DNA from: Deltaproteobacteria bacterium
Lineage (GTDB): Bacteria; Desulfobacterota; Binatia; UBA9968; JAJDTQ01
Length of the DNA: 64,000 nucleotides
Assembly: GCA_028818775.1 (NCBI GenBank)
Contig: JAPPNE010000039.1
Location: 8 to 64,007 of the forward strand
Direction: 5' to 3'
Positions 2,169-38,635 of the stretch are shown in pieces. A model generated the notes under the pieces. The model was not told the origin of the DNA. It saw only the letters and a program-made list of their open reading frames with translations, and did not search any database. Each line of letters starts with the position of its first letter. Position 1 is the first letter of the stretch. The translations under genes and the position numbers were made by a program.

Positions 2169-3665
2169 GTGGCCGACACAGGATCCCTCGGCTTCACCGG
2201 TTCCGGCCGGCACATCGTAGACGAAGACGAGATCAAGCTCACCAGCGTGGGCGTGGACATCGGTTCGTCCACGTCCCACCTGGTGTTCTCGCGTCTCGAG
2301 TTGAGCCAGGAAGGCACCCGCTACGTCGTCAAGAAGCGCATCGTGCTGAGCGAATCGGAGATTCTGCTCACGCCCTACACCGACGACCTGACCATCGACA
2401 TGGAGCGCCTGGAGCGCTTCATCAACGAGCAGTACGAGCGCGCCGAGCTCAAGCGCGAGGACGTCGACACCGGCGCCCTGATCCTTACCGGCGTGGCCGT
2501 GCGCCGGCGCAACTCTCGCGCCATCGCCGAGTTGTTCGCCGAGGAGGCGGGCCGGTTCGTGTCGGTCACCGCTGGCGACGGGCTCGAGACCACCATGGCC
2601 GCCCACGGCTCCGGCGCGGTGGCGCGCTCGGGCCGCGAGGAAGGGGTGGTGCTCAACATCGACGTGGGCGGCGGCACCAGCAAGATAGCGGTGTGCGCCG
2701 GCGGCAGGGTGCGCGAGGTGACCGCCATCGACGTGGGCGCCCGGCTGCTGGCCATGGACGGCGGCAACACCGTTGTCCGGATCGAGGAGGCAGGCAGGCG
2801 TCACGGCGGCAAGGTGGGCGTCGAGCTGGAGCTTGGCCAGTCCATGAACGAGCAGACCCTGGAGGCCATTGCCTCGGAGATGGCGGACCGCCTGTTCGAG
2901 GTGGTCAACCAGCAGGAGCTGACCGACGAAACCCGGGAGCTGCTCCGCCTTCCGCCGCTGTCGTACCGGGGCAAGGTCGACGCCGTGACTTTCTCGGGCG
3001 GCGTGTCCGAGTTCATCTACGGCCACGCCGAGAACGGCTACGGCGACATGGGCGCGATCCTGGGCAGGGAGATCCGCCGGCGGGTGGAGGGACTGGGCGT
3101 TCCCATCCTGGAGCCCGCGGCGCGCATCCGCGCCACCGTCATCGGCGCTTCCCAGTACACCATCCAGGTGAGCGGCAGCACCATCTTTATCTCACCCCCG
3201 GACGCGGTGCCGGTGCGGAACGTCCCCGTGGTGCGCATCGACTTCGAGTGGGGCGACGACATCGATCCCGCCGAGGTGATCGGCGCCATCGACAACGCGC
3301 TGCGGCGCCTGGACCTCCAGGACGGCCGCCAGCCGGTGGCGTTGGCGTTCCACTGGGAGGGATCCGCCACCTTCGCCCGCCTGCAGGGCTTCTGCGGCGC
3401 GGTGGCGGAGGGCCTCAAGCCCATTCTGGACAAGGGGCACCCGTTGCTCCTGGTCAACGACGGCGACATCGGCGGCATCCTGGGCTTGCACTTCAAGGAG
3501 GAGATGAAGCTCGACAAGCCCATCATCTCGGTGGACGGCATCGCGCTGCAGGAGTTCGACTACATCGACGTGGGCGCGCTGATCCCCTCCTCGGGGGCGG
3601 TGCCCGTGGTCATCAAGTCGCTCGTCTTCCCCAGCGCGGAGCAGAACGCGGCTATCCGGCAATAA
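2169..3665 (+). CDS. EutA-like protein (ethanolamine ammonia-lyase reactivase family)
   Basis: N-terminal VGVDIGSSTSHLVFSRLEL matches the EutA N-terminus (GIDLGTTTTQVIFSRLEL). GTG start overlaps the stop of the upstream gene; about 500 aa. Confidence 0.7.
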   Translation: MADTGSLGFTGSGRHIVDEDEIKLTSVGVDIGSSTSHLVFSRLELSQEGTRYVVKKRIVLSESEILLTPYTDDLTIDMERLERFINEQYERAELKREDVDTGALILTGVAVRRRNSRAIAELFAEEAGRFVSVTAGDGLETTMAAHGSGAVARSGREEGVVLNIDVGGGTSKIAVCAGGRVREVTAIDVGARLLAMDGGNTVVRIEEAGRRHGGKVGVELELGQSMNEQTLEAIASEMADRLFEVVNQQELTDETRELLRLPPLSYRGKVDAVTFSGGVSEFIYGHAENGYGDMGAILGREIRRRVEGLGVPILEPAARIRATVIGASQYTIQVSGSTIFISPPDAVPVRNVPVVRIDFEWGDDIDPAEVIGAIDNALRRLDLQDGRQPVALAFHWEGSATFARLQGFCGAVAEGLKPILDKGHPLLLVNDGDIGGILGLHFKEEMKLDKPIISVDGIALQEFDYIDVGALIPSSGAVPVVIKSLVFPSAEQNAAIRQ

Positions 3666-3692
3666 CGGACCGTCAGGGGCGTCGTACGATGT

Positions 3693-3723
3693 TGTAGGGC
3701 GGGTTTGAAACCCGCCCCTACAC
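3693..3723 (+). terminator. GC-rich stem-loop between the EutA-like gene and thrC (possible terminator or attenuator)
   Basis: Near-perfect inverted repeat gtagggcgggttt / aaacccgcccctac, extended by cgtcg...cgacg. No strong T-tract follows. Confidence 0.3.
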
Positions 3724-3752
3724 GACGTATCGTTGGCAGTAGAGGACGAGTC

Positions 3753-5123
<1,371 letters not shown>

Positions 5124-9608: not shown

Positions 9609-10041
9609 GAGTGCCTCCTGAAACCGCGTTGATGGTGTCTGCCCGAGACTGAGAGTTCGAGCCCCCCTTGCATCCTTCCACGGCCGGCGGGCTCGCCTGG
9701 AGCCAAACCGCTGGCGTCTCCCAATGCGTTGGAACCGAGCGGGAAGAATCGTGGCGTCGGTCGTGGCGCCGGGCGCGCTGCCCATGCCGCATCTCCGGCG
9801 AGCGCCGCGCTCGCTCGGCAGGCTCGCTCGGGAAGTACGGGAGCGCTAGAAGGATAAGGGGCTGCGTCGTGTCCGTTGCTCCATCTGAATTAGCCGGGAG
9901 GGCGGGGCAAGTCAATACTTGGCGGTGCCCGCACAGTGGCGGCCACGCGCTTTCGAGTCCTGTCGCCTGCCGCCGCTACATCAGGACGGGGTCGCGCGCG
10001 CCCTCGTTGGAAAACGCGCCCCCGTGTGGCAAGAGTACACG

Positions 10042-11208
10042 ATGGCCAAGCAGAATACGCGACAGAAACTCCTGCGCGACGGTATGAACGTGCTCCGGCG
10101 GGAAGGGCTGGAGACGGAGTCGCCGGACGTGACCGTGGTGGAAACCCTCGTGCAGCGGTTCGACGCCGAACCCGCGGTCTCCCTGGCCGTGGCCAACGTT
10201 CTCGGCCGCATCCGCGACGCCGCATCGGTGGAGGCGCTCAAGGGCCTGGAGCCGCGCGCCGGCCACAAGGAGGTCCGGCGCGAGATCCGCCGGTCGCTGT
10301 TCAAGCTGGCCCAGGCCGGACTCGGCGCGGCCGAGCCCGAGGGTTCGCGGGAGGAGGCGGCGGGCACGACCTTCAGTCTGGCCCCGGAGATCGAGGGTTA
10401 CCTGTCATCCGTTACCGGAGCCGGCTCGCGCATGGTGATCCTGGCGCGCCCCCAGCTCGGCGGGCTGATGGTGCTGCAGGCGGCCGTAAACGACCGCCGC
10501 GGACTCGAACGGCTGGGCGGCACCGTCATCCGGCGCAAGGAGCTGCGTCAGATGATGGAGGAGATGAAGGCCCAGGTGGGGGTCTCCGTCACGCCGGTGC
10601 CGTGGGAGTACGCCGATTGGCTGGTGCACGACGCCTACCAGAAAGTGAAGGACACGCCGGGCGAGGGGGTCGCCGACTATCCCGTCCTGCGCAGCCGCCT
10701 CGCCACGGCCAAGCCCGCGGAGCGCGCCCATCCGGTCTTCGATGCCATGAACGCGGAGGGCATCGAAGCGACCTCCCTGTCGGAAGTCTCCGACAAGCTC
10801 CTGGAGGAACCGGAGCTGCGCACGTGGTTCGTGGAAAAGGAGCTGATGGAGCCTTACCTCCAGCGCCTCGACGAAACCGAGCAGAGCCGCATCGTGCTCA
10901 ATCCCATGCAGAAGGAGGAGCGCTTCCGGGGCGTCCTGCGGGAAGCCGTCCAGGGCCTCTTCCTGGGCGACGAAACCGCGCCGGTGTTCGAGGCCCGCCT
11001 GGAAGACGCCGCCTACCATCTCCACGCCTCCGGCCGGGAGGACCAGGCCCGGCAGGTCCTGCGCATCGCCCTGGCCATCCGCGACCGCGACCTCGGAAGC
11101 CTGGGCGTGCCGCTGCTCGAAACCCTCGTGATGCGCAGCGTCGGCCTCTACAAGGAACAGGAGAAGCAGGAAGCGGCGGAAGAGCCGTCGCTGATCGTCA
11201 AGCCGTAG
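10042..11208 (+). CDS. Conserved hypothetical protein
   Basis: 388-aa ORF with protein-like composition and no recognisable motif. The start is uncertain. Confidence 0.45.
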   Translation: MAKQNTRQKLLRDGMNVLRREGLETESPDVTVVETLVQRFDAEPAVSLAVANVLGRIRDAASVEALKGLEPRAGHKEVRREIRRSLFKLAQAGLGAAEPEGSREEAAGTTFSLAPEIEGYLSSVTGAGSRMVILARPQLGGLMVLQAAVNDRRGLERLGGTVIRRKELRQMMEEMKAQVGVSVTPVPWEYADWLVHDAYQKVKDTPGEGVADYPVLRSRLATAKPAERAHPVFDAMNAEGIEATSLSEVSDKLLEEPELRTWFVEKELMEPYLQRLDETEQSRIVLNPMQKEERFRGVLREAVQGLFLGDETAPVFEARLEDAAYHLHASGREDQARQVLRIALAIRDRDLGSLGVPLLETLVMRSVGLYKEQEKQEAAEEPSLIVKP

Positions 11209-11744: not shown

Positions 11745-14228
11745 TTACCGGTACAGGTGGGCGTCGTCCACCGACGTCTCCGGCTTGCGGATCTGGGGGG
11801 TGAGGGAGGGGAGGCCGGGGCGGGCGCGGATCAGGAAGTCCACGGGGATGAAGTCCTTGAGCAGGGGGATGGGCAGGCGCACGCCGGCGTAGGGGCTGAC
11901 GGCATCGTTGCCTACCACCAACTCGTCGGCCAGGAAGGAATCGGGTGCGTCGGCGCGCACGCTGACGCCCGCGGCGGTGACGCTGCCGCGGACCGTGGGC
12001 AGGCCGTAGGCCCGCTGAGGGTCGGTTTCCTTGGTGCTCAAGATCTCGTGGTCGAGGATGGCGGAACGGTCGCGAGCGGCCCGGCCGGTCTCGCGGATGA
12101 ACTCCAGGTCGGAAGCGTCGGCGCCCAGGTCGCGGGGCTCGAACCGCATCAGGCGCGTAGGAAAGTCCTCGAGCCCGTCGGTTCCGACCGGTTCGCCGGC
12201 CCCGCGCGCGCCCAGCGCGTAGCGCTTCTCGCGCAGCAGCATCTCCAGGCCTTCGATGCGCGACCGTGCCACCGGGTAGGTGCGGGTCAACGCGCCCCAC
12301 GGGGTGTCGTAGTGCAAGAGGATCGCGTGGCGGCCCAGGAGGTTGAGCCCGGCTTCGGCCAGCTCCAGGTTGCGGACCCTGCCGTCGAACAGCGCCGGCT
12401 TGAGTCCGAGCCCCTCGGGGCCGTGGAGGCGCGGGTTGTCGGCGAGGTACTGCTTGCTGAGGCGGACGCCGCGGTTCTTTGGCGCCACCAGCCGTGCCAG
12501 CCGGCCCTTGGCCTCCTCGCCGGCGGGAGTGTCTGGGTAGTGTCCCAGCACCGCGGCGTAGAGTGCCCGTTGCCGGGTCTTGGACTCCGTCCCCTCGGCG
12601 GCGCGCAACAGCGTCCGTCCGGCCTTCTCCTCCAGTTCCCGCACCTCCTCCGCCGGCTTCTTCCCGGAAAGGCGGTAGTATTGGACCGCCTTGTGCGGAT
12701 GGCCCTGGCTCCTGTAGGCGTCGCCTAGCGCCTGGTAGATGTCCCCGGACTCCTGGGATTCCGGCCGGGCGCGGACGGCGCGGGCGGCCGCGTCGACCAC
12801 GGTCTGGTTCGACACCGGGTTGCCGCTGAGCATCTCCAATAGATTGCTGGTCACCATGAGGATGTTGGCGGCGCCCAGGGTGGCGGCTCCGGCGATTCCA
12901 TGGGTGATGATCGGCGCCGCCCCGATCATGGCGTTCTTTTCCAGGAAGTTCTCTCCCAGGAGCGCGAACCGCACCTGATCCAGGCGGTAGCGCGCGTGCT
13001 CCCGGTCCAGGGCTCCGCGAAGGTTGTATTCCGGGCTGTCGAGCAGGATGCGCGCGCGTTCGCGGGAGCGCTCGGAGGAGGCGTTGCGCCTGACGGCCGC
13101 AAGCGCGCGCTTGGCGTCCCCGTGCCGGCCGTCCATCTCCAGGGCGACGGCGGCGACGTCCCGGGCGAGAGGCTCCAGGCCTTCGCTGGCGTAGCGTTGT
13201 GCCATCTCCTCCGCCCGCTCCCGCGCCGCCGCGGCGTCCCTCAGAACCAGAGCGTGGAGCAGCGCGCGAATGTCCTTCCGTTGTTCGGCGTTAACCCCGG
13301 CAAGGTCGTCGGCGTCGGCCACGGAGTTGACTTGGCGCCGTCCCTCGTCCCGCTCCTTCCGCGCCGCTTCGATCTCCCGGAGCCGCTCCTTCACCGTTTC
13401 GGCCTCCGGCGCCACCGCGGCCGCCAGCCGGGCATGGAACTCCGCGTCGTCGATCCTGCCTTCCGACAGCGCGAGGCTCGCCTGGGTATCGTGCCCGTGG
13501 AGCCACACGACGGTCTTCTTGGCTTCGAGCGCGGCGACCGTTTGCTTTACCGCGTCTCCTTGCGGGTGGTTCGGGAAACGCGCGAGAAAACGCTTGTAAA
13601 GGACCAGGGCCTTGCGCTCGCCGGCGGGCATGCGCGGCTCGCGGCCCCGGAACAACTCGGCGAAGGCGGTGTCCACGGCGGCGGTGAGATACGAGCCCGA
13701 CACCCATCCGATCAGATCCACGGAGCCGAGCATGCGGTTCAGCAGTTCGTTCCAGCGGCCGATGTCGCTCTCGGCCACGAGCGCGTCCGCCTGTTCCAGC
13801 TCGTCCTCGGCCAGGCGGGCGCGGAGGAACCGGCGCCGCGCGTCGGTGGGAGCGGTCTCCAGGCTTTCTTGCAACGCTTTTCGGTAGGCGTCGCGGTCGG
13901 TGAGGGCTGCATGGTGCAGGTCCTGCAGGCCGTGGCTCAACCCGCTTGCCCGCTCGCCGCGGGCGTCGAGTTCGCGGTCCCTCTCCTCGACATGGCGCAC
14001 GTGGTCGCGCAGCCTCGACCCGTGTCCGCCCAAGGTGTCGCGCAGCGCCCGGCGCGCGCGCTGCTCGATTTCGTCGGGGAAGTAGCGCGCGTCGGTGACC
14101 GCGGGCGCGAAGGGATCGAAGCCGTGCAGCGGGTCCAGCATCCGCGGGTGGGCATCGCCGTGGACCTGAGCGGCGGCAACGACCGGCAGTGCCAGGAGCA
14201 GGCAGAGCAGCCCGGCGGCAGTCCTCAT
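11745..14228 (-). CDS. Large secreted helical protein (827 aa) with signal peptide, unknown function
   Basis: Signal peptide MRTAAGLLCLLLALPVVAAAQ. Highly charged Arg/Glu/Ala-rich helical-repeat body. Start ATG overlaps the stop of the upstream lipoprotein gene (ATGA). Confidence 0.6.
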   Translation of the reverse strand: MRTAAGLLCLLLALPVVAAAQVHGDAHPRMLDPLHGFDPFAPAVTDARYFPDEIEQRARRALRDTLGGHGSRLRDHVRHVEERDRELDARGERASGLSHGLQDLHHAALTDRDAYRKALQESLETAPTDARRRFLRARLAEDELEQADALVAESDIGRWNELLNRMLGSVDLIGWVSGSYLTAAVDTAFAELFRGREPRMPAGERKALVLYKRFLARFPNHPQGDAVKQTVAALEAKKTVVWLHGHDTQASLALSEGRIDDAEFHARLAAAVAPEAETVKERLREIEAARKERDEGRRQVNSVADADDLAGVNAEQRKDIRALLHALVLRDAAAARERAEEMAQRYASEGLEPLARDVAAVALEMDGRHGDAKRALAAVRRNASSERSRERARILLDSPEYNLRGALDREHARYRLDQVRFALLGENFLEKNAMIGAAPIITHGIAGAATLGAANILMVTSNLLEMLSGNPVSNQTVVDAAARAVRARPESQESGDIYQALGDAYRSQGHPHKAVQYYRLSGKKPAEEVRELEEKAGRTLLRAAEGTESKTRQRALYAAVLGHYPDTPAGEEAKGRLARLVAPKNRGVRLSKQYLADNPRLHGPEGLGLKPALFDGRVRNLELAEAGLNLLGRHAILLHYDTPWGALTRTYPVARSRIEGLEMLLREKRYALGARGAGEPVGTDGLEDFPTRLMRFEPRDLGADASDLEFIRETGRAARDRSAILDHEILSTKETDPQRAYGLPTVRGSVTAAGVSVRADAPDSFLADELVVGNDAVSPYAGVRLPIPLLKDFIPVDFLIRARPGLPSLTPQIRKPETSVDDAHLYR

Positions 14229-15166
14229 CGGCTGCGCCTCCGCATCTGTTCCATCATGCCTTTCAGGCCCTCGATCTTTCCGTTGGCTTCGAGTTTCTCC
14301 GGCGCGCCGTCCTGCTGTGCCACCTCGGTGTAGAGCTTCATAGCCGATTGGGCGAAGCCCTCGAAGGTCTTGATGTCGAAGGCGAGGCCCTCCGGCTCGT
14401 TCAACAGCGCATACTCCCGCGCCAAGCCGGTATAGTAGTCGCCGAAGTCCAGCACGTGGCGGTGATACTTCTTGCTTTCCTGGTGCCGCGACAGGAGCTC
14501 GCTGTAGGCCACGGCGACGAGCTCGTCGCCGTCGTTCAGGCCGCGGCGGTTGAGCTCCACGAAGGCGACCTTGGCGCGGTCGACGCGCTCCGCCTCCACC
14601 CGGGCCAGGGACTCCAAGGGCGTCCCCGCGTGACGCTCGATCAAAGCGTTCCATGCGCGCACGCGCTCGTCCAGCGCCTTGATGTAGTCGGACGCATCGT
14701 CGGCCGGCAAGGCGGTGGCGGCGATGCGCTGGAACGTCTCCAGGGCGTCGATTTGGCGGCGCGCCTGTTCCGCCAGTTCACCCCCGGCGCGCGCCACGCC
14801 GCGGTAGTGGCGGAGCGCGCGCCGGTAGTCCCTCAGGCGCTCGTAGGCGGTGGCGCGGGTGAACCCCACGATGTCGCGGTACCCGTTCCCGTGCTTGCGC
14901 TCGAAGTCCTCCAGCCGCAGCAGGGTGGCCTTGAGGATGCTGGTGCCGGTGACGTCCTTGGGCACGTCGAACCGGTACACGTCCTCGCGTCCGAGCCGTT
15001 GGAACTCGCTGACGATCTCCACCAGGTTCGCCGGCTGCGCGTAACGCGGCTCGTAACGCGGCTCCGGTTCGGGCGAGGGCGCGCCCGTGCGCGCGCACCC
15101 GGCCGCGAGCAGCAGCGCCAGCGCAAGCCCGGCGGCCGCCGTCCGTGTCGGGTCCGGCAAACTCAT
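14225..15166 (-). CDS. Lipoprotein (lipobox LLAAGC), unknown function
   Basis: MSLPDPTRTAAAGLALALLLAAGCARTG signal/lipobox. Only the last 313 codons of the 701-aa track ORF are protein-like. Confidence 0.6.
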   Translation of the reverse strand: MSLPDPTRTAAAGLALALLLAAGCARTGAPSPEPEPRYEPRYAQPANLVEIVSEFQRLGREDVYRFDVPKDVTGTSILKATLLRLEDFERKHGNGYRDIVGFTRATAYERLRDYRRALRHYRGVARAGGELAEQARRQIDALETFQRIAATALPADDASDYIKALDERVRAWNALIERHAGTPLESLARVEAERVDRAKVAFVELNRRGLNDGDELVAVAYSELLSRHQESKKYHRHVLDFGDYYTGLAREYALLNEPEGLAFDIKTFEGFAQSAMKLYTEVAQQDGAPEKLEANGKIEGLKGMMEQMRRRSR

Positions 15167-17756: not shown

Positions 17757-18602
17757 ATGATCATCGACGGCAAGGCGGTGGCGCAGCAGGTGCGCGACGA
17801 GGTGCGGGTAGCCGCCCAGCGGCTCAGGAACGACCACGGCGTCGTACCCGGTCTGGGCGTGGTGCTGGTCGGAGACGATCCGGCGTCGCGGGTGTACGTG
17901 CGCAACAAGGAGAAGGCGTGTGCGGAGGTGGGCATCCGCTCGGTGGAGCATCTGCTGCCGGCGTCGGTGTCGGAGCACGAGTTGCTGGACCTGATCGCCA
18001 GTCTCAACGAGGATCCGGCCATCCACGGCATCCTCGTGCAACTGCCGCTGCCGGAACAGATCGCCAGCGCGCGCATTCTCGAGGCCGTGTCGCCGGCCAA
18101 GGACGTGGACGGGTTTCACCCGGTGAACCAGGGATTGCTCCTTTCCGGCGGCGAGGGCTTCAGGCCGTGCACCCCGCTGGGGATCATGCGCATGCTGGAC
18201 TCGGTCGGTTGCCCGCTCAAGGGCAGGAACGCGGTGGTGGTGGGGCGCAGCAACATCGTCGGCAAGCCCGTGGCGCTGATGCTGCTGGAGCGGCACGCCA
18301 CGGTCACGCTCTGTCATTCGCGCACCGCGGATCTCGCGGGCGAAGTGGGCCGGGCGGACGTGGTGGTGGCGGCCGTGGGCAAGACCCACGCCATCCGCGG
18401 CGAGTGGATCAAACCCGGCGCCGTGGTCATCGACGTGGGCATCAACCGGTTGCCTGACGGGAAGCTCGCGGGCGACGTGGAGTTCGACGCCGCGCGGGAG
18501 CGCGCATCGTGGATCTCGCCCGTGCCCGGAGGCGTCGGCCCCATGACCATCTGCATGCTCTTGTCCAACACGCTGCTGTCGGCGCAGCGTTCCGTCGCGT
18601 AG
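17757..18602 (+). CDS. folD: Bifunctional methylene-THF dehydrogenase/methenyl-THF cyclohydrolase
   Basis: [13 protein letters not shown]...YVRNK...[15 protein letters not shown] are typical FolD. Confidence 0.9.
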
Positions 18603-18649
18603 GCGGTACCGCCGGCCGGCTGGTGTGCCGTACACGGGGGTCTCCGACC

Positions 18650-19738
18650 ATGGTGGAAGAGGCGCAGGGCAAACAACTCCGCAGGACGCCGTTGCATGAG
18701 CGGCACAAGGCGCTGGGCGCGCGCATGGTGGGGTTCGCCGGATGGGAGATGCCGGTCCAGTACCGGGGCATCCAGGCCGAGCACGCGGCAGTGCGCTCCG
18801 GGGCCGGGCTCTTCGACGTGAGCCACATGGGAGAGTTGGAGGTGACGGGCGCCGGCGCTTCGCGGTTCTGCCAGCGGGTCACCACCAACGACGTCACGCG
18901 CCTGCAGCCGTCACAGGCTCAGTACACGCTGTTGCTGAACGAGCGCGCGGGCGTGATCGACGACCTGGTGATCTTCCGTCTGGAGGAGGCACGTTACCTG
19001 CTGTGCGTGAACGCCTCCCGCGCGGACGTCGATTTCGAGTGGCTGGCGGATCACGCGGACGACGACGTGACCGTGGAAAACGTCAGCGACGCCTATGCGT
19101 TGCTGGCGCTTCAGGGGCCCGCCGCCGCGGGAATCCTGCAACCGTTGACCGCGGCGGAGCTGTCGACGCTCAAGCCGTTCCAATTCGTGAATGGGGACGT
19201 GAGCGGAATCCCCTGCATGATTTCACGCACCGGGTACACCGGGGAGGACGGGTTCGAGCTCTATTGCGCTGCGGGAGACGGCGCCGCGCTTTGGGACACC
19301 CTCACGGCGGCGGGCGACGTGGAGCCGGCCGGCCTGGGCGCGCGCGACACCCTCCGCCTGGAGAAGGGCTACTCGCTCTACGGCCATGAACTCGACGAGA
19401 CCACGACGCCGTTGGAGGCCCGGCTCGGCTGGGTCACCAAGCTCGACAAGGGGCCGTTCATCGGCTCCGAGGTGTTGGCGCGGAAGGAGCCGCTTGTGCG
19501 GCGCTTGGCCGGGCTGATGATGGAAGAGGCGGGCATTGCCCGCCAAGGCTACCCGATATGGCGCGAAGGGCGCGAAGTGGGGCGCATCACCAGCGGCACT
19601 CTGTCGCCGACCCTGGGCAAGGCCATCGCGCTGGGTTACGTCGCGCCGGAGTCCGCGGCGGCGGACACCGAGGTGGAGGTGGAAATCCGCCGCAGGCGGG
19701 TGCGCGCCCGCATCGTCCGCGTGCCGTTCGTCCGGTAG
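18650..19738 (+). CDS. gcvT: Glycine cleavage system T protein (aminomethyltransferase)
   Basis: [27 protein letters not shown]-terminus and GcvT fold throughout. Confidence 0.9.
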
Positions 19739-19767
19739 CGAACCGGCCGGCCGCGAAGGAGGAATCG

Positions 19768-20178
19768 ATGGAGTACCCCAAGGGTCTGCGGTATTCGAGG
19801 GAGCACGAGTGGGTGCTGGTGGAGGACGCGGACGGCGCCGTCATCGGCATATCCGATTTCGCCCAGAACGAACTGGGAGACGTGGTGTACGTGGAGGCCC
19901 CGGCGATGGGGGAGACCATCAGCAAGGACGATCCGTTCGGCGCGGTGGAGTCCGTGAAAGCGGTGTCGGACCTCTACGCGCCGGTGAGCGGCACCGTGGT
20001 CGAGGTCAACGATGCGCTGACGGACACCCCGGAGCTTGTCAACGAGGACCCCTACGGCGAGGGGTGGATCATCAAGGTGACCATGTCGGACGTCAGCGAG
20101 CTCGACGACCTCTTGACCCATGAGGAGTACAAGGAGCACTGCGAAGGGCAGCCGGATGACGACGACGGCGGCGCTTGA
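19768..20178 (+). CDS. gcvH: Glycine cleavage system H protein
   Basis: Lipoyl-lysine motif ESVKAVSD and EHEW motif, with an AGGAGGA RBS. Confidence 0.9.
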
Positions 20179-20209
20179 CGCAGCGTACTAGAACATAGAG
20201 GAGCCTGCC

Positions 20210-23086
<2,877 letters not shown>

Positions 23087-23130: not shown

Positions 23131-23325
23131 ATGTTTGGCTTGGGTATATGGGAACTGCTGATCATCCTGGTGATCATCCTGGTTCTCTTCAGCCGCAGGC
23201 TGCCGGAGCTGGGCCAGGGTCTCGGCAAGGGGATCAAGAGCTTCCGCAAGTCGCTCCACGAGCCGGACGAGATCGACGTCACCGCCGCCGAGAAGGGTGA
23301 GGGCGACGGTTCCAAGAAAGACTGA
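23131..23325 (+). CDS. tatA: Sec-independent translocase subunit TatA/E
   Basis: [28 protein letters not shown] followed by an amphipathic helix and an acidic tail. Confidence 0.85.
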
Positions 23326-24628: not shown

Positions 24629-25624
24629 TCAGATGGAAAAGTCCACGTTGCCGACGTCAAGGCTTTCCTTCCACGTGGTCCAGAGGTTCGTCGTCATGTA
24701 ACGCGCGCCGAAGTCGGGAAACACCGCCACCACCGTGCCGTGGGTGAGGCGCCGGGCCACGGCCATGGCCGCCACCAGGGCGGCGCCGGATGATTGCCCC
24801 ACCAGCAGCCCCTCCTCCTGGCTCAGCCGGTAGACCATCTCGTAGGCGTCCTCGGTGGACACCGGGATCTTCAGGTCCAGCTCCTCCTCATGGTAGATGC
24901 CCGGAACGATGGAGCTGGCCATGTGCTTCAGCCCTTCGAGTCCGTGGATCTCGGAGTCGGGCTCGGCCGCGATCACGCGGATGCGCGGATCCCGCTCTTT
25001 CAGGAAGCGTCCCGCCCCCATCACGGTGCCGCCGGTGCCGATGCCGGCGACGAAGTGGGTGACGCCCCCCTCGGTCTGCCGGTAGATCTCGGGACCGGTG
25101 GCCTCGTAGTGGGCCTGACTGTTCATCGGGTTGAAGTACTGGTCGGGCTTGAAGTATCCGTCCGGGTCCTCCGCGACGATCTTGCGGCAGAGACGGATGG
25201 CTCCGTCGGAGCCTTCCAGCGGATCGCTGTAGACGATCTCCGCGCCGAACAACCGGATGATGTTCTTGCGTTCCTCGCTCACGTTGGCGGGCACCACCAG
25301 CCGTACGGGGTAGCCCAGCGCCGCGCCGATCATGGCGATGGCGATGCCGGTGTTGCCCGAGGTGGAGTCGATGATGGTGCGGCCCGGCGTGAGCCGCCCG
25401 GTGTCGATGGCATCCCGGATCATCCGGAGGGCGGGGCGGTCCTTCACCGAGCCGCCGGGATTGAACCCCTCGAGCTTGGCCAGCACCCGCACGCCCCGTG
25501 ACAACCCGCTGGTTATCCGCCGGACCTCCACCAGGGGCGTGTTGCCGACAAGCTCGACGATGCCGTCGACCTTGCGCGGCCGGCCAAGGGGCGAGGCGGC
25601 GTCCTGGTTCAGCGCGGTGAGCAT
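24629..25624 (-). CDS. CysM/CysK-family PLP enzyme (cysteine synthase / O-phosphoserine sulfhydrylase-like)
   Basis: PLP lysine motif PGGSVKDR, TSGNTG loop and GIGTGGT. Last gene of the riboswitch-controlled operon. Confidence 0.85.
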   Translation of the reverse strand: MLTALNQDAASPLGRPRKVDGIVELVGNTPLVEVRRITSGLSRGVRVLAKLEGFNPGGSVKDRPALRMIRDAIDTGRLTPGRTIIDSTSGNTGIAIAMIGAALGYPVRLVVPANVSEERKNIIRLFGAEIVYSDPLEGSDGAIRLCRKIVAEDPDGYFKPDQYFNPMNSQAHYEATGPEIYRQTEGGVTHFVAGIGTGGTVMGAGRFLKERDPRIRVIAAEPDSEIHGLEGLKHMASSIVPGIYHEEELDLKIPVSTEDAYEMVYRLSQEEGLLVGQSSGAALVAAMAVARRLTHGTVVAVFPDFGARYMTTNLWTTWKESLDVGNVDFSI

Positions 25625-25643
25625 GGAGCGTGCCGGGAACTCG

Positions 25644-25922
25644 CTAGAGGCCGCCGGCGATGGCCGGGACGATGGAGATGCTGTCGCCGTCCTTCAACGC
25701 GGTATCGACGTTCTGGAGAAAGCGGATGTCGTCGCCGTTGACGTAGACGTTCACGAACCGGCGCACCTTGCCGCTTTCGTCCATGATGCGCTCCTTGATG
25801 CCGGGGTGCTTCTGCTCCAGATCCTCCAGCATGGCCAGAACGGTGTCGCCGTTGACGTCGACCTCGTCCGATCCCTGGGTGAATTTTCTCAGCGGCGTAG
25901 GCACGCGTACACGAACACTCAT
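25644..25922 (-). CDS. MoaD/ThiS/CysO-like sulfur carrier protein (C-terminus ...AIAGGL)
   Basis: 92-aa beta-grasp-like protein with a GGGAGG RBS; ends Gly-Gly-Leu. Confidence 0.7.
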   Translation of the reverse strand: MSVRVRVPTPLRKFTQGSDEVDVNGDTVLAMLEDLEQKHPGIKERIMDESGKVRRFVNVYVNGDDIRFLQNVDTALKDGDSISIVPAIAGGL

Positions 25923-25980
25923 GAAACAACCTCCCTCTCCATCAGGATAAAACCCGGTTGCGACCTTTTCAATGGCGCCT

Positions 25981-27246
25981 TCAGCCCGCCTTCGCGTCCG
26001 GCCGCGTTGCGCGCGTCAGCCCGTCGTACAGTTCGTCGAAGTTGCCCAGGTCGGCGTCGATGCTGTACGGCCGGTCGACGATGTGCGCCACCGTCTCGAT
26101 GGTCTTGTAGCCGTTCCCGGTGATGGAGATGACGATGGACTCGTCCCGTGGAATCCGGCCCTGCTCGATGAGCTTCTTCGTCACCGCCACCTCGGTGCCC
26201 CCTGCGGGCTCGGTGAAGATGCCCTCGGTGGCGGCCAGCAAGCGGATGCCGTCGAGGATCTCCTCGTCGGTGACGTTCTCGCCCCATCCGCCGGTCTCCT
26301 TCAGCGTCTGGATGACGTAGTAGCCGTCGGCCGGGTTGCCGATGGCGATGGAGGTGGCGATGGTGTCGGGCTTCACCGGGTCGACGACGTCGGTGCCGCG
26401 CTTGAGCGCGTTGATGATGGGCGAGCAGCCAGCCGCCTGCGCGGAGTAGATGCTGCACGGCTCGTCCGGGTCCACCAGCCCCACCTTGCGCAGCTCCTTG
26501 AACCCCTTGCCCAGCTTGGGCAGGATGGTGCCTCCCGCCGAGCCCACCACGATGTGCCGCGGCAGCTTCCAGCCGAGCTGTTCGGCCACCTCGAAGGCGT
26601 GCGTCTTCGCGCCCTCGGAGTAGTAGGGCCTCAGGTTCACGTTGACGAACGCCCACTGGTACTTGTCGCCGATCTCGCTGCACAGCCGGTTGACGTCGTC
26701 GTAGGTCCCCTTGATGGCCACGGTGCGCGGGCCGTAGATGGCGGAGCCGACGATCTTCCCTTCCTCCAGCCCCTCGGGGATGAACACGTAACAGTTGAGC
26801 CCGGCGCTGGCGGCGTGGGCCGAAACCGAGTTGGCGAGGTTGCCGGTGGAGGCGCACGAGACGGTTTCGTAGCCGAACTCGATGGCCTTGGAGATGGCCA
26901 CCGACACCACCCGGTCCTTGTACGAGAAGGTCGGGTGGTTCACGGAGTCGTCCTTGAGGTACAACTCGTCGACGCCCAGCGCCTCGCCCAGGCGGCGCGC
27001 ACGGATGAGTGGGGTATAGCCCGAGTAGAGGCCCACGCGGGGCTCCTGGTCGATGGGCAGCAGCTCCCGGTAACGCCACAGGTTGCGGGCCCGCGAGGCG
27101 ATCTTCTCCCGGCTCACGCTATCGCGGATCGCGTCGTAGTCGTACTCCACCTCGAGGGGGCCGAAGCAGTCCTCGCACACGTGCAGGGGCGCCGTGGGAT
27201 ACTCCCGGCCGCACTCCCGGCATTTCAATCCTTTCACAAAGCTCAT
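25981..27246 (-). CDS. Threonine-synthase-like PLP enzyme with N-terminal zinc ribbon (second ThrC paralog)
   Basis: CRECG...CEDCFG zinc ribbon plus a ThrC fold (SFSYKDR, ASTGNLANS). ATG at 27246 overlaps the moeB-like stop (ATGA). Confidence 0.85.
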   Translation of the reverse strand: MSFVKGLKCRECGREYPTAPLHVCEDCFGPLEVEYDYDAIRDSVSREKIASRARNLWRYRELLPIDQEPRVGLYSGYTPLIRARRLGEALGVDELYLKDDSVNHPTFSYKDRVVSVAISKAIEFGYETVSCASTGNLANSVSAHAASAGLNCYVFIPEGLEEGKIVGSAIYGPRTVAIKGTYDDVNRLCSEIGDKYQWAFVNVNLRPYYSEGAKTHAFEVAEQLGWKLPRHIVVGSAGGTILPKLGKGFKELRKVGLVDPDEPCSIYSAQAAGCSPIINALKRGTDVVDPVKPDTIATSIAIGNPADGYYVIQTLKETGGWGENVTDEEILDGIRLLAATEGIFTEPAGGTEVAVTKKLIEQGRIPRDESIVISITGNGYKTIETVAHIVDRPYSIDADLGNFDELYDGLTRATRPDAKAG

Positions 27247-28031
27247 GCGTGACTCCTTTGGGACGCCGGCGGGCCCGCGGATGCGCCGCAAGCCTTGCAG
27301 CGCGGGTTCGGCGACACCGGCACCTTTCTTATTTCCATGGTCTTGGCGTCATAGGTGAGCAGGCTGTTCACCAGCAGGTGCTCCTCGAGGCCGACGATGT
27401 ACTTGACGGCCTCGGTGGCCTGGATGGATCCGATGGTCCCCGCCACCGCGCCCAGGATACCCGCCTGCTGGCACCCCAGGACCTCGCCGGGCGCCGGCGG
27501 CTCCTCGAAAAGGCAGCGATAGCAGGCGCTGTCCGGCGGCACCACCGTCATGGTCTGGCCCTGAAGGCGTACGATCCCCGCGTGGGAAAACGGCTTGCTC
27601 ATGGCCACGGCGACATCGTTGACCAGGAACTTGGTGTCGAAGTTGTCGCTTCCGTCGATGACGAAGTCGTACGGTTCCATGAGCCCGGCGGCGTTGTCTT
27701 CGGTCAGGCGCACGTCGTGGACCTCCACCTCCACCTCGGCGTTGAGCTCGCGCAGCCGCGACCTCGCCGATTCCACCTTGCGCTGACCCTGGTCGGCGGT
27801 GGTGTGGAGGATCTGCCGCTGCAGGTTGGAGAGGTCCACCGTATCGCCGTCCACGATGCCGAGCCGCCCGATGCCGGCGGCGGCCAGATAGAATGCCGCG
27901 GGGCTTCCCAGACCGCCGGCTCCCACCACCAGGGCACTCGCCTGGCGCAGGCGTATCTGGCCGGCGCCGCCGACGTCGGGGATCATGATCTGGCGGCTGT
28001 ATCGCTCGATTTGATCAGGGGTCAGACGCAT
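27243..28031 (-). CDS. MoeB/ThiF-family E1-like sulfur-carrier adenylyltransferase
   Basis: GAGGLGSPAAFYLAAAGIGRLGIVDGD Rossmann motif and zinc-site cysteines (CYRC...CKACG). No rhodanese domain. Confidence 0.85.
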   Translation of the reverse strand: MRLTPDQIERYSRQIMIPDVGGAGQIRLRQASALVVGAGGLGSPAAFYLAAAGIGRLGIVDGDTVDLSNLQRQILHTTADQGQRKVESARSRLRELNAEVEVEVHDVRLTEDNAAGLMEPYDFVIDGSDNFDTKFLVNDVAVAMSKPFSHAGIVRLQGQTMTVVPPDSACYRCLFEEPPAPGEVLGCQQAGILGAVAGTIGSIQATEAVKYIVGLEEHLLVNSLLTYDAKTMEIRKVPVSPNPRCKACGASAGPPASQRSHA

Positions 28032-28084
28032 CGAACGCGGGCTCCAGGCTAAGCTTCAACGACACTACTCAAGACACTACAAAC

Positions 28085-28118
28085 GAAAAAAAACCTCTTC
28101 CAAGATGAGAAGAGGTTT
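28085..28118 (-). terminator. Intrinsic terminator (expression platform of the SAM-I riboswitch)
   Basis: Minus-strand RNA aaccucuuc-ucaucuug-gaagagguu (9-bp stem) followed by U8. Confidence 0.65.
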
Positions 28119-28119
28119 T

Positions 28120-28232
28120 CTCCTCACCTTATCTGTCCCTTGCGGGCCGGAATTAGCACCTGCGTTCCCTTGGGATACGTGGTTGCTGTGGCTTCAACGG
28201 GCCTGTCCCTCCACCACTCTGGATAAGGTGTC
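28120..28232 (-). promoter_or_regulatory. SAM-I (S-box) riboswitch aptamer
   Basis: Minus-strand sequence ccuuAUCcAGAGuGGugGAGGGAcaGGCCCguuGAagCCacaGCAACC...GGUGCuAAuUCC...AGAUAAGg matches the S-box core; P1 is ccuuauc/gauaagg. Confidence 0.8.
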
Positions 28233-28281: not shown

Positions 28282-28365
28282 TCACGCCGCGCGCCGCGGT
28301 TCATGGACGGGCCGGTCGCCGAACTCGTGTCCACAACCCTTGCACTGGAACTCATAAAGAGGCAT
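28282..28365 (-). CDS. Small ORF resembling the N-terminus of an FmdB-family zinc-ribbon protein (27 aa, possibly a remnant)
   Basis: MPLYEFQCKGCGHEF with a strong AAGGAG RBS. It ends at a TGA; the same frame continues for 42 more codons and lacks a second CxxC. Confidence 0.2.
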   Translation of the reverse strand: MPLYEFQCKGCGHEFGDRPVHEPRRAA

Positions 28366-28494
28366 GAGGTGTTCTCCTTTCGGCGCGAAACCGTTCCGTA
28401 CCCGCGGTGGGAGGGCCGGCAAGGTAGAGCACTGCCAATATACTCCACCGCACGGCGGTGGCAAACCCCTGCGCCGGGAGACGGGGAGGTTGTC

Positions 28495-37276: not shown

Positions 37277-37409
37277 CGTGATCAGAGCTTACGCAATCGA
37301 GGGGCGTGCCGCAATGCGCCAGTGCGCGGGGGTGCACGACAAATTGTAGCCACGGATCAGAGGGCGTTGGCGTGGCGTTCCCGGAAGTCATCGATGAGGT
37401 GGCCCCCGG

Positions 37410-37454
37410 TTGACAAATGTCGGTTATTTCGTTATTTTTACCGTCAAAATAACG
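37410..37454 (+). promoter_or_regulatory. Sigma70-like promoter (-35 TTGACA, -10 TATTTT) overlapped by a palindromic operator-like site
   Basis: TTGACA at 37410-37415, a 17-bp spacer, TATTTT at 37433-37438. Palindrome cgttatttt-N7-aaaataacg at 37430-37454 in an AT-rich block 12 nt before the ATPase ATG. Confidence 0.4.
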
Positions 37455-37465
37455 GGATCGCCGAC

Positions 37466-38635
37466 ATGTACTCCAGGATACTCGATCTGCCCGAAAAGAG
37501 TTTCTTCCTGTTCGGCCCGCGTGGCACCGGGAAATCCGTGTGGCTGCAGCAACGTCTCGGCCACGCAGACCTGAGCATCAATCTCCTCAAGTCCGGCGAG
37601 TATCTTCGATACAAGCGGGACCCCTCCCTTCTCGCTCAGGAAGCAGCCGCGTTGCCCGGCCGGCGGCCCTGGATCATTATCGACGAGGTGCAAAAGCTGC
37701 CGGAGTTGCTCGACGAGGTGCATGCGCTCCTGTTCGAGAGCGGACAGGACCATCGGTTTGCACTGTCCGGGTCCAGCGCCCGGAAGCTAAAGCGGTCCCA
37801 TGCCAACATGCTCGCGGGACGCGCCCTTTTGAAACGGATGTTTCCACTGAGCATGCTTGAAGTCGGTGAGGACTTCAGCCTGCCGGAGGCTCTGCGTTAC
37901 GGACAGTTGCCCTTGAGTGTGACATCGGTTTCCCGAACCGAGAAGGTCGAGTTCCTGGATGCCTACGTCGAGACCTATCTGAAGGAAGAGATTCAGCAGG
38001 AAGCTCTGGTCAGGAACCTTGACAGTTTCTACCGGTTCCTGTCAGTCGCCGGCATGATGAGCGGGCAGTTGCTGAACATCGCCAATATCGCCCGGGACGT
38101 GGGCGTCGCCAGGTCCACCGTCCAAGGCTATTTCGGCATCCTGGAAGACACCTTGCTGGGCTGGCACCTGCCCGCCTACCGCAACAAGGCCAAGGTCAAG
38201 GAGGTGGCTCACCCCAAGTTCTACCTGTTCGATTGCGGCGTGCAGCGTGCCCTGATGGGGAGGCACCGGGACGAACCCTCGGCGGTCGAGACGGGCGCTT
38301 TGTTCGAGGCCTTCGTTCTGAATGAGTTCAGGGCACTCAACGTGTGGCGGTCTCACGGCGCGCAGTTCTTCTACTGGCGCACGGAGGCGGGCAACGAAGT
38401 GGACCTGATCTGGAAGAGGGGAGAGCAGGCCGCGGGCTTTGAAATCAAGTCGTCCAATGTCTGGCAGGAGAAATTCAACAAGGGATTGAATGTCTTGTTG
38501 CAGACCGGTGACATCGGGCATGCTTTCGGCGTGTATCGCGGCGAACGGGCTCTGAAGGTCGGAAAGGTGACCGTGCTCCCTTACAAGATGGCCATCGAGA
38601 TGGCCCTGGAAGGGAGTTTCGTTCCAACACCTTGA
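37466..38635 (+). CDS. AAA+ ATPase with C-terminal DUF4143 domain
   Basis: Walker A GPRGTGKS, Walker B IIIDEV, DUF4143-like C-terminus. Locally lower GC. Confidence 0.85.
   Translation: MYSRILDLPEKSFFLFGPRGTGKSVWLQQRLGHADLSINLLKSGEYLRYKRDPSLLAQEAAALPGRRPWIIIDEVQKLPELLDEVHALLFESGQDHRFALSGSSARKLKRSHANMLAGRALLKRMFPLSMLEVGEDFSLPEALRYGQLPLSVTSVSRTEKVEFLDAYVETYLKEEIQQEALVRNLDSFYRFLSVAGMMSGQLLNIANIARDVGVARSTVQGYFGILEDTLLGWHLPAYRNKAKVKEVAHPKFYLFDCGVQRALMGRHRDEPSAVETGALFEAFVLNEFRALNVWRSHGAQFFYWRTEAGNEVDLIWKRGEQAAGFEIKSSNVWQEKFNKGLNVLLQTGDIGHAFGVYRGERALKVGKVTVLPYKMAIEMALEGSFVPTP

Follow-up and report, generated by a model that had tools for sequence, protein, structure and literature searches.

The closest described counterpart of the locus treated here is the MetM/MetO pathway of Streptomyces albulus. 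According to the summary of Hasebe et al. 2024 (Appl Environ Microbiol 90:e01247-24) in the GapMind 2026 preprint (10.1101/2024.10.14.618325), MetM forms homocysteine from O-phosphohomoserine and the thiocarboxylate of the carrier protein MetO, Mec is needed for the maturation of MetO, MoeZ is the sulfur ligase, and MetM, a homolog of threonine synthases, frequently bears their name by misannotation. In a second paper, a riboswitch for S-adenosylmethionine (SAM) is placed upstream of S. albulus metM, and cyanobacterial homologs with an adjacent metO-like gene are described as being without it (PMC12172450). A Streptomyces homolog is also reported, in both sources, to rescue methionine auxotrophy (10.1101/2024.10.14.618325, PMC12172450). 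Gene neighbourhoods combining ThiS/MoaD carriers, E1 activating enzymes, JAB proteases and cysteine synthases were catalogued in 2006 as types 4c/4d by Iyer, Burroughs and Aravind (PMC1779556), whose paper mentions neither ThrC nor methionine and thus reports no ThrC-like member in those clusters. Here we describe an operon on the minus strand of a 64,000-nucleotide stretch of DNA (contig JAPPNE010000039.1 of assembly GCA_028818775.1; the whole stretch is called the window), in which a SAM-I riboswitch precedes genes for an E1, a ThrC-like enzyme, a carrier protein and a CysM-like enzyme.

We consider it quite probable that SAM represses this operon and that its genes serve to make sulfur amino acids by way of a protein thiocarboxylate. 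An earlier reading of the sequence, referred to as the preliminary description, had suggested that the ThrC-like enzyme condenses O-phosphohomoserine with the carrier thiocarboxylate to give homocysteine. Since the MetM/MetO pathway has been published, this proposed chemistry is the published chemistry, and the window protein groups with the predicted MetM subfamily. The same description called the system unusual and poorly characterised, which holds for the composition of the operon but not for its core pathway or its SAM riboswitch, both of which are in the literature. The core route was already published in 2024; the less common part is a co-transcribed E1 without a rhodanese domain, together with an uncharacterised CysM-like subtype, behind the riboswitch.

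The SAM-I leader and the genes behind it

A scan of the whole 64 kb window with the Rfam covariance models returned SAM-I (S-box, RF00162) as the sole match, at 28229..28126 on the minus strand, with 82.8 bits (E = 5e-18) against a gathering score of 44.4. The match spans model positions 1-108 of 108, covering P1-P4 without truncation, and P1 is formed by ACCUUAUC and GAUAAGGU. Three nucleotides (nt) downstream of the aptamer, the terminator scan found an intrinsic terminator, a hairpin at 28123..28086 (minus strand) followed by eight uridines (U8), whose core stem AACCUCUUC/GAAGAGGUU comprises 9 bp and can be lengthened by A-U pairs. Thus the aptamer that had been read from the letters was recovered by the very Rfam scan proposed for it, the P1 and core strings quoted at that time are all present in it, and the terminator with its 9-bp stem and U8 tract lies where it was described.

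ViennaRNA folds of leader sub-segments gave a 12-bp alternative hairpin, AAGGUGAGGAGA/UCUUCUCAUCUU (28103..28131, minus strand), with an energy of about -14 to -15 kcal/mol. In this antiterminator, the final 5 nt of the P1 3′ strand combine with the 5′ arm and the loop of the terminator, and because these nucleotides are common to P1, antiterminator and terminator, the antiterminator is mutually exclusive with both in the classic S-box manner. The minimum free energy fold of the full leader displays the aptamer and the terminator. In silico, the expression platform is therefore a competition of P1 with the antiterminator followed by an intrinsic terminator. The folding energy of the whole leader was not more stable than that of shuffled sequences (z = -0.7), a measure that is uninformative for a riboswitch. 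At high SAM, the aptamer would bind its ligand and P1 would form; with P1 formed the antiterminator cannot form, and the hairpin with its U8 tract would halt transcription 54 nt ahead of the first gene, this being the distance from the end of the U tract to the start codon. At low SAM, the P1 3′ strand would instead pair with the terminator 5′ arm, and the four genes would be transcribed.

A weak candidate for a sigma-70-like promoter, TTGCCA-16-TATATT at 28437..28464 (minus strand; 10/12 in a consensus scan), sits about 210 nt upstream of the aptamer. Between the two lies an open reading frame (ORF) of 27 amino acids (aa), MPLYEFQCKGCGHEFGDRPVHEPRRAA, at 28282-28364 (minus strand), which has a good Shine-Dalgarno sequence and looks like an FmdB-type CxxC zinc-ribbon protein cut to its N-terminal half. 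Omitted by the metagenome gene caller, it may represent a leader peptide or what is left of a gene.

On the minus strand, four genes lie behind the leader: the E1 (27243..28031), the ThrC-like enzyme (25981..27246), the carrier (25644..25922) and the CysM-like enzyme (24629..25624). The spacers between them are -4, 58 and 19 nt. The coordinates and the genes called independently on the source contig both have the TGA of the E1 gene overlapping the ATG of the ThrC-like gene as ATGA. Gene content and overlap thus agree with the preliminary description, whose account of the operon structure stood; it had overlooked the need for carrier trimming and the lack of a sulfurtransferase domain on the E1. 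We treat the four genes as a single transcription unit, with the proviso that the last two may be expressed independently to some extent.

The window lies within a 102 kb metagenome scaffold, and in its whole 64 kb, covered by gene calls based on GC content at third codon positions (GC3) and by Pfam scans, we found no JAB/Mec protease, rhodanese, canonical thrC or other met gene. Likewise, no JAB protease, rhodanese or other methionine gene was found in the 21 kb loci of close relatives. The operon would thus depend on functions encoded elsewhere.

The distribution of the system was read from an alignment-based scan, with one genome per species, which yielded 80 loci from many phyla at 54-67% identity to the ThrC-like protein. 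A carrier homolog adjoins the ThrC-like gene in 66 of them. A covariance model built from the SAM-I aptamers of these loci detected SAM-I immediately upstream of the ThrC-like gene, or of the operon that holds it, in 30 of these 80, spanning Binataceae, Acidobacteriota, Planctomycetota, Verrucomicrobiota, Chloroflexota and Actinomycetota. The 18 cyanobacterial loci have no aptamer, which agrees with the literature. Five Binatia/'Deltaproteobacteria' relatives have the same gene order as the window, each with a homologous SAM-I aptamer of 77-82 bits ahead of the E1 gene, and the order, the short spacers and the ATGA overlap recur in loci L002-L006 and L008.

Apart from the close relatives of the window, the combination is rarer. 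SAM-I together with an E1 gene was found in 8 of the 80 loci (L008, L014, L015, L016, L017, L046, L056 and L078), largely from Planctomycetota, and the complete set of SAM-I, E1, carrier, MetM-like enzyme and window-type CysM-like enzyme in two, L008 (Binataceae) and L014 (a 'Deltaproteobacteria' metagenome-assembled genome, MAG). An E1 with a CysM- or CysK-type gene but without SAM-I occurs in twelve further loci, and several phyla have similar clusters that lack the riboswitch and mostly include a JAB protease. When 12 SAM-I-negative loci, including 7 of those twelve, were scanned against all of Rfam, no other SAM riboswitch class reached its gathering score.

At least 22 of 35 SAM-I leaders in related loci (L001 and L002, assigned by sequence, included) end in a hairpin and U tract. 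In Micromonospora coriariae, a cultured species, the aptamer (69 bits) is followed after 11 nt by the gene (L087:7855-9287), a gap which suggests that control there is probably translational, as in some other leaders. This MetM-like gene stands alone with no adjacent carrier gene, so that its carrier must be encoded elsewhere. In five Nitrospirota loci (L044, L050, L051, L057 and L072), two E1 genes flank the ThrC-like/carrier pair, with a CysK-type gene upstream and no SAM riboswitch; downstream, L050, L051, L057 and L072 have an ORF with a JAMM motif (JAB-like), and none was found in L044.

The ThrC-like enzyme, the carrier and the E1

The ThrC-like protein (421 aa) is a ThrC-fold enzyme dependent on pyridoxal 5′-phosphate (PLP) and a candidate MetM-like homocysteine synthase. 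Its scores are 220 bits for Pfam PALP and 281.8 for TIGR00260, the NCBIfam thrC equivalog model, whose cut-off of 167.1 it passes. Lys110, within SYKDR, aligns with Lys61 of Thermus thermophilus ThrC, which places the Schiff-base lysine. Its N-terminus carries a CxxC..CxxC zinc ribbon, and the solved threonine synthases, which align only from about residue 56 of the window protein, lack this ribbon. A Pfam 'NinF' match at the same N-terminus was disregarded, as it corresponds to the CxxC ribbon.

Besides the ribbon, two signatures set the subfamily apart, STGNL and NVNLRPYYxEGAKT (in the window, NVNLRPYYSEGAKT). Solved threonine synthases have STGNT (Thr88, T. thermophilus numbering taken from the alignment) in place of the first and N154-S155-V-N-P-x-R160-x-EGQKT in place of the second. 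The residues of these two motifs reportedly contact the substrate phosphate (Omi et al. 2003; Murakawa et al. 2011). STGNL is present in 85 of the 86 homologs examined, and the RPYY motif in every example displayed. Among representatives of clusters at 50% identity, STGN[L/V] with RPYY marks the nearest subfamily, zinc-ribbon relatives further away have STGNA or STGNM, and identity has dropped to about 38% before STGNT is seen. In five loci a second ThrC paralog lies beside the MetM-like gene; these paralogs have neither signature and no zinc ribbon, while three have STGNT and four the canonical NS.N..R.EGQK-type motif. The canonical paralog of L025 is 41% identical to the window protein.

Judged by these sequence features, the window protein belongs to the predicted MetM-type subfamily of ThrC, and its genetic linkage is that of a metM gene, with a carrier gene 58 nt downstream and SAM-I heading the operon. 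The closest proteins are 80-89% identical, those with a named source come from Candidatus Binatia or 'Deltaproteobacteria' MAGs, and they are annotated 'threonine synthase'. Identity is 57-58% to cyanobacterial homologs and 50% to the M. coriariae homolog. One of the cyanobacterial members, from M. aeruginosa, is in turn 51.6% identical to S. albulus MetM (PMC12172450). The best 120 matches to a Micromonosporaceae homolog comprise only Micromonosporaceae and Actinoplanes, with no Streptomyces MetM among them.

The carrier (92 aa) is a beta-grasp protein of the MetO/CysO-like kind, which matches Pfam ThiS at 65 bits, passes the NCBIfam SAMP1 model (65.8 against 60) and scores over the cut-off of moaD_arch. 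Its best solved relative is M. tuberculosis CysO (PDB 3dwg_C, 52% identity), and it is 46-57% identical to the carriers adjoining cyanobacterial MetM homologs. As these similarities are about equal, sequence assigns the carrier to no single partner enzyme. Its C-terminus, ...AIAGG-L, extends one residue (Leu) past Gly-Gly; the carriers of close relatives end in GG-V, -N, -I, -R or -REIS, and among related carriers 41 stop at GG, 23 run on for 1-10 residues and 7 continue as fusions with another domain. Adenylation needs a free Gly-Gly carboxylate, and a protease must therefore act on the carrier first. The arrangement of Gly-Gly with a variable tail matches the proteolytic maturation by Mec reported for MetO.

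In six loci (L014:7275-7790, L018, L031, L035, L036 and L038:3020-3540) the carrier reads through Gly-Gly into a NIL domain (Pfam PF09383, confirmed on two of the six fusions), and in L003-L006 a stand-alone NIL protein of 87 aa follows the CysM-like gene (L003:12678-12941). NIL is the methionine-binding regulatory domain of MetN. In these sister clusters, NIL after the carrier Gly-Gly could be a cleavable, methionine-sensing pro-domain that gates carrier maturation. In an Actinomycetota MAG (L049:7244-8242) carrier and E1 share a single reading frame that runs from GG into ThiF without a stop codon.

The E1 (262 aa) is a ThiF/MoeB-type adenylyltransferase with a single domain, Pfam ThiF, at 273 bits over residues 11-246. 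Pfam detected no rhodanese domain, or any other domain beyond ThiF, on it. It scores under the NCBIfam cut-offs for MoeB, UbaA (296 against 450 bits) and MoeZ (280 against 647), and the MoeZ model aligns over positions 14-262 of 392 only. Its solved relatives are Uba4, ThiF and MoeB. Since the carrier needs C-terminal trimming and the E1 has no sulfurtransferase domain, the operon is not self-sufficient.

The CysM-like enzyme and the possible readings of the operon

The last gene encodes a CysM-like PLP enzyme of 331 aa (PALP, 239 bits), whose top family scores are those of cysM/cysK sulfhydrylases. It falls short of the curated threshold of TIGR01138 cysM (358.6 against 394.2) and just short of that of TIGR01136 cysKM (343.6 against 344.15), and was thus not filed as a CysM of the mycobacterial type; it also matches the models of cystathionine beta-synthase (274 bits) and of the desulfhydrase Cds1. 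It is 41% identical to M. tuberculosis CysM, for which a sequence identical over all its 323 residues to PDB 3dwg_A residues 3-325 served as the reference. The protein is without the CysK-specific insertion (…PGPHKIQGIGAGF…) and carries HGLEGLKHM, where a Lys (LKHM against LRNM) occupies the position aligned with mycobacterial Arg220. Arg220 reportedly binds the phosphate of O-phosphoserine (Agren et al. 2008). The Lys is invariant in the subtype and retains a basic side chain.

This HGLEGLKHM subtype is distinct and uncharacterised, with no close solved relative. In the sampled loci it was found only in clusters with a carrier and usually with an E1 (L001-L008, L014, L018, L021, L031, L038, L041, L042 and L070). 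A small JAMM-motif gene overlaps the 3′ end of the CysM-like gene in L014, L031, L038, L041 and L070, and Pfam confirmed its Prok-JAB identity in L014, L038 and L041. In the Nitrospirota loci and in L049, L035 and L037, an ordinary CysK type occupies the cluster instead.

Put together, the genes would allow the following route. A protease not encoded at the locus would trim the carrier to its C-terminal Gly-Gly, the E1 would adenylate the trimmed carrier, and a sulfur donor, also not encoded at the locus, would convert it to the thiocarboxylate. The ThrC-like enzyme would then activate O-phosphohomoserine through PLP and add the carrier thiocarboxylate at C-gamma, releasing homocysteine for the synthesis of methionine and SAM. 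The CysM-like enzyme most probably works like CysM, and would use the same carrier for a beta-replacement that turns O-phosphoserine or O-acetylserine into cysteine, a step modelled on the mycobacterial CysO/CysM system. The strongest form of this proposal is that two PLP enzymes of different folds are both supplied by one dedicated E1 and a single carrier, making up a SAM-gated module that forms homocysteine from O-phosphohomoserine and cysteine from O-phosphoserine wholly via protein thiocarboxylate and bypasses free sulfide and acylated homoserine or serine; we put it forward tentatively, as a possibility short of an even chance.

Several points weigh against a thiocarboxylate-based operon as drawn here. 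The enzymatic steps, the use of one carrier by both enzymes and the response to SAM are all predictions from sequence, and the orthology to S. albulus MetM is traced indirectly, through the Micromonospora and cyanobacterial identities and the motifs. A cyanobacterial member of the subfamily is reported to show threonine synthase/deaminase activity in vitro and to fall short of full MetM behaviour (PMC12172450). The extra C-terminal residue of the carrier would block adenylation unless removed, and the JAB protease that could trim it is missing from the operon, from the window and from the 21 kb loci of the relatives; the E1, moreover, has no rhodanese domain. As for the CysM-like enzyme, both curated scores are under their cut-offs and Arg220 is replaced by Lys, and SAM control of cysteine synthesis would be physiologically odd. 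Finally, a weak promoter-like match, TTGAAA-17-TATCCT at 25944-25972 (minus strand), lies in the 58-nt gap that separates the carrier gene from the ThrC-like gene. Only the closest relative has kept this match, and it suggests that the carrier and CysM-like genes might also be expressed independently of the leader; this site could give SAM-independent expression of the carrier and the CysM-like enzyme.

The alternative that survives best, an unlikely one in our judgement, keeps the riboswitch and the MetM/MetO chemistry and has the CysM-like enzyme serve methionine in some way other than as a carrier-dependent cysteine synthase. A desulfhydrase or MccA-like role of this protein is a real alternative. 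MccA is S-box-controlled in Bacillus subtilis, and desulfhydrases with the CysK fold are known. In the first role, the protein would release H2S from cysteine; an E1 without a sulfurtransferase domain needs a sulfide source, and the HGLEGLKHM enzyme could charge this rhodanese-less E1, which would amount to protein-mediated forward transsulfuration from cysteine to homocysteine. In the second, it would act as an MccA-like cystathionine beta-synthase in reverse transsulfuration. SAM control would be logical if all four genes served methionine, and the sub-threshold cysM and cysKM scores, the matches to cystathionine beta-synthase and Cds1 and the distance of the subtype from any solved protein fit such roles. 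On the other side, the top family scores of the protein are those of sulfhydrylases and no desulfhydrase- or MccA-specific feature was identified in its sequence; its carrier resembles CysO; and in other phyla a JAB gene overlaps genes of the subtype, mirroring mec-cysM, in which the protease releases cysteine from the carrier.

The ThrC-like protein might itself be a real threonine synthase, or a synthase/deaminase, standing beside a module of the CysO/CysM type, with the riboswitch balancing O-phosphohomoserine flux. The score above the thrC equivalog cut-off, the 'threonine synthase' annotation of the family in public sources and the in vitro activity of the cyanobacterial member (PMC12172450) speak for this reading, which we nevertheless regard as very unlikely. 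Repression of a threonine synthase at high SAM would have the wrong regulatory sign, and SAM-I is tied to the subfamily in 30 of 80 loci; the adjacency of a carrier in 66 of 80 is likewise not explained by threonine synthesis. The two substrate-site motifs are unlike those of solved ThrCs, five loci have an adjacent second ThrC paralog without the subfamily signatures, and the Streptomyces homolog mentioned above reportedly rescues methionine auxotrophy. Least credible of all is a ubiquitin-like (SAMP/Urm1-like) protein-conjugation system formed by the E1 and the beta-grasp protein, with the PLP enzymes as unrelated neighbours: the carrier passes the SAMP1 cut-off, the E1 matches UbaA at 296 bits and JAB proteases, which are deconjugating enzymes, occur in related clusters, but that score is short of the UbaA cut-off of 450, CysO, the nearest carrier with a solved structure, is a sulfur carrier, there is translational coupling and cross-phyla synteny with two PLP sulfur enzymes, and a conjugation role does not explain the SAM riboswitch.

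Neighbouring loci and comparison with known systems

The operon adjoins a plus-strand cluster of folD and gcvT-gcvH-gcvP at 17757-23086, which is followed by tatA at 23131-23325; no glycine riboswitch was found upstream of gcvT at the Rfam gathering score. A second, unrelated PLP-enzyme locus is located at 2169-5123 (plus strand), where genes for an EutA-like ATPase (498 aa) and then a 472-aa PALP enzyme with an N-terminal extension lie downstream of a cupin protein. Two large ORFs, at 9919-11208 (plus strand, 429 aa) and 11745-14654 (minus strand, 969 aa), have coding-like GC3 and no Pfam match at E <= 1e-5. The AAA_14/DUF4143 ATPase gene at 37322-38635 (plus strand) has a GC3 of 0.76 against about 0.9 in its neighbours, which suggests recently acquired DNA.

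Every named source labels the ThrC-like family 'threonine synthase', and the present evidence suggests that its members with STGNL, RPYY and the zinc ribbon are homocysteine synthases, at least where they are tied to a carrier or a SAM riboswitch. As a consequence of this misannotation, methionine biosynthesis may wrongly be scored as missing when the metabolism of uncultured lineages is reconstructed, among them Binatia, Acidobacteriota, Planctomycetota, Verrucomicrobiota and Nitrospirota. The locus reveals no new regulatory or catalytic principle. Its remaining interest lies in this misannotation, in a carrier that is untrimmed and has no local protease, and in the NIL domain that recurs in sister clusters. 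It is also a compact candidate for a fully thiocarboxylate-based sulfur amino acid module, and it points to an uncharacterised CysM-like subtype.

Compared with the SAM-I class (RF00162), the RNA is ordinary, with a full-length four-helix aptamer, a terminator/antiterminator platform and methionine-pathway genes downstream; the regulated genes alone are less common. With the MetM/MetO system of S. albulus the locus has in common a ThrC-homologous PLP enzyme and a MoaD/ThiS-like carrier, a SAM riboswitch upstream, C-terminal maturation of the carrier and the need for a MoeZ/MoeB-type E1. It differs in that the riboswitch-controlled operon includes the E1, here lacking rhodanese, and also a gene for a CysM-like enzyme, that a Mec/JAB gene is absent from the surroundings, and that the host is an uncultured Binatia-like bacterium.

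The mec-cysO-cysM system of M. tuberculosis, which with MoeZ makes cysteine from O-phosphoserine and CysO thiocarboxylate, has in common with the window a carrier at 52% identity, a CysM-fold gene directly downstream of the carrier and a ThiF/MoeB-type E1, and related clusters of other phyla have the JAB gene overlapping the CysM-like gene. The window differs in having no mec gene and an E1 without rhodanese, and its CysM-like enzyme is 41% identical, has Lys for Arg220 and belongs to the separate HGLEGLKHM subtype; the SAM riboswitch and the ThrC-like enzyme are additions. In Wolinella succinogenes, HcyS, HcyF, HcyD and MetY reportedly make up a methionine pathway based on a protein thiocarboxylate (Krishnamoorthy and Begley 2011). 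HcyD is the protease that trims the carrier, a JAMM enzyme removing the extra residue after Gly-Gly. An E1 in the operon, a carrier with Gly-Gly plus one residue and a thiocarboxylate as the sulfur donor for homocysteine are common to that pathway and the window, whereas the Wolinella PLP enzyme is MetY, an O-acetylhomoserine sulfhydrylase of fold type I, and the window has a ThrC-fold enzyme and no protease in the cluster. We know of no SAM-I riboswitch at the Wolinella pathway.

The neighbourhoods of types 4c/4d likewise bring a beta-grasp carrier, an E1-like enzyme and a cysteine synthase together in one predicted operon in several phyla; their E1s are fused to rhodanese and a JAB protease is included, and the window has neither (PMC1779556). 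Thus the window operon joins two modules, each already known, behind a riboswitch that is known as well, in a form typical of its lineage, and it extends the MetM/MetO route to a case in which an E1 and a further PLP enzyme are encoded together with it.

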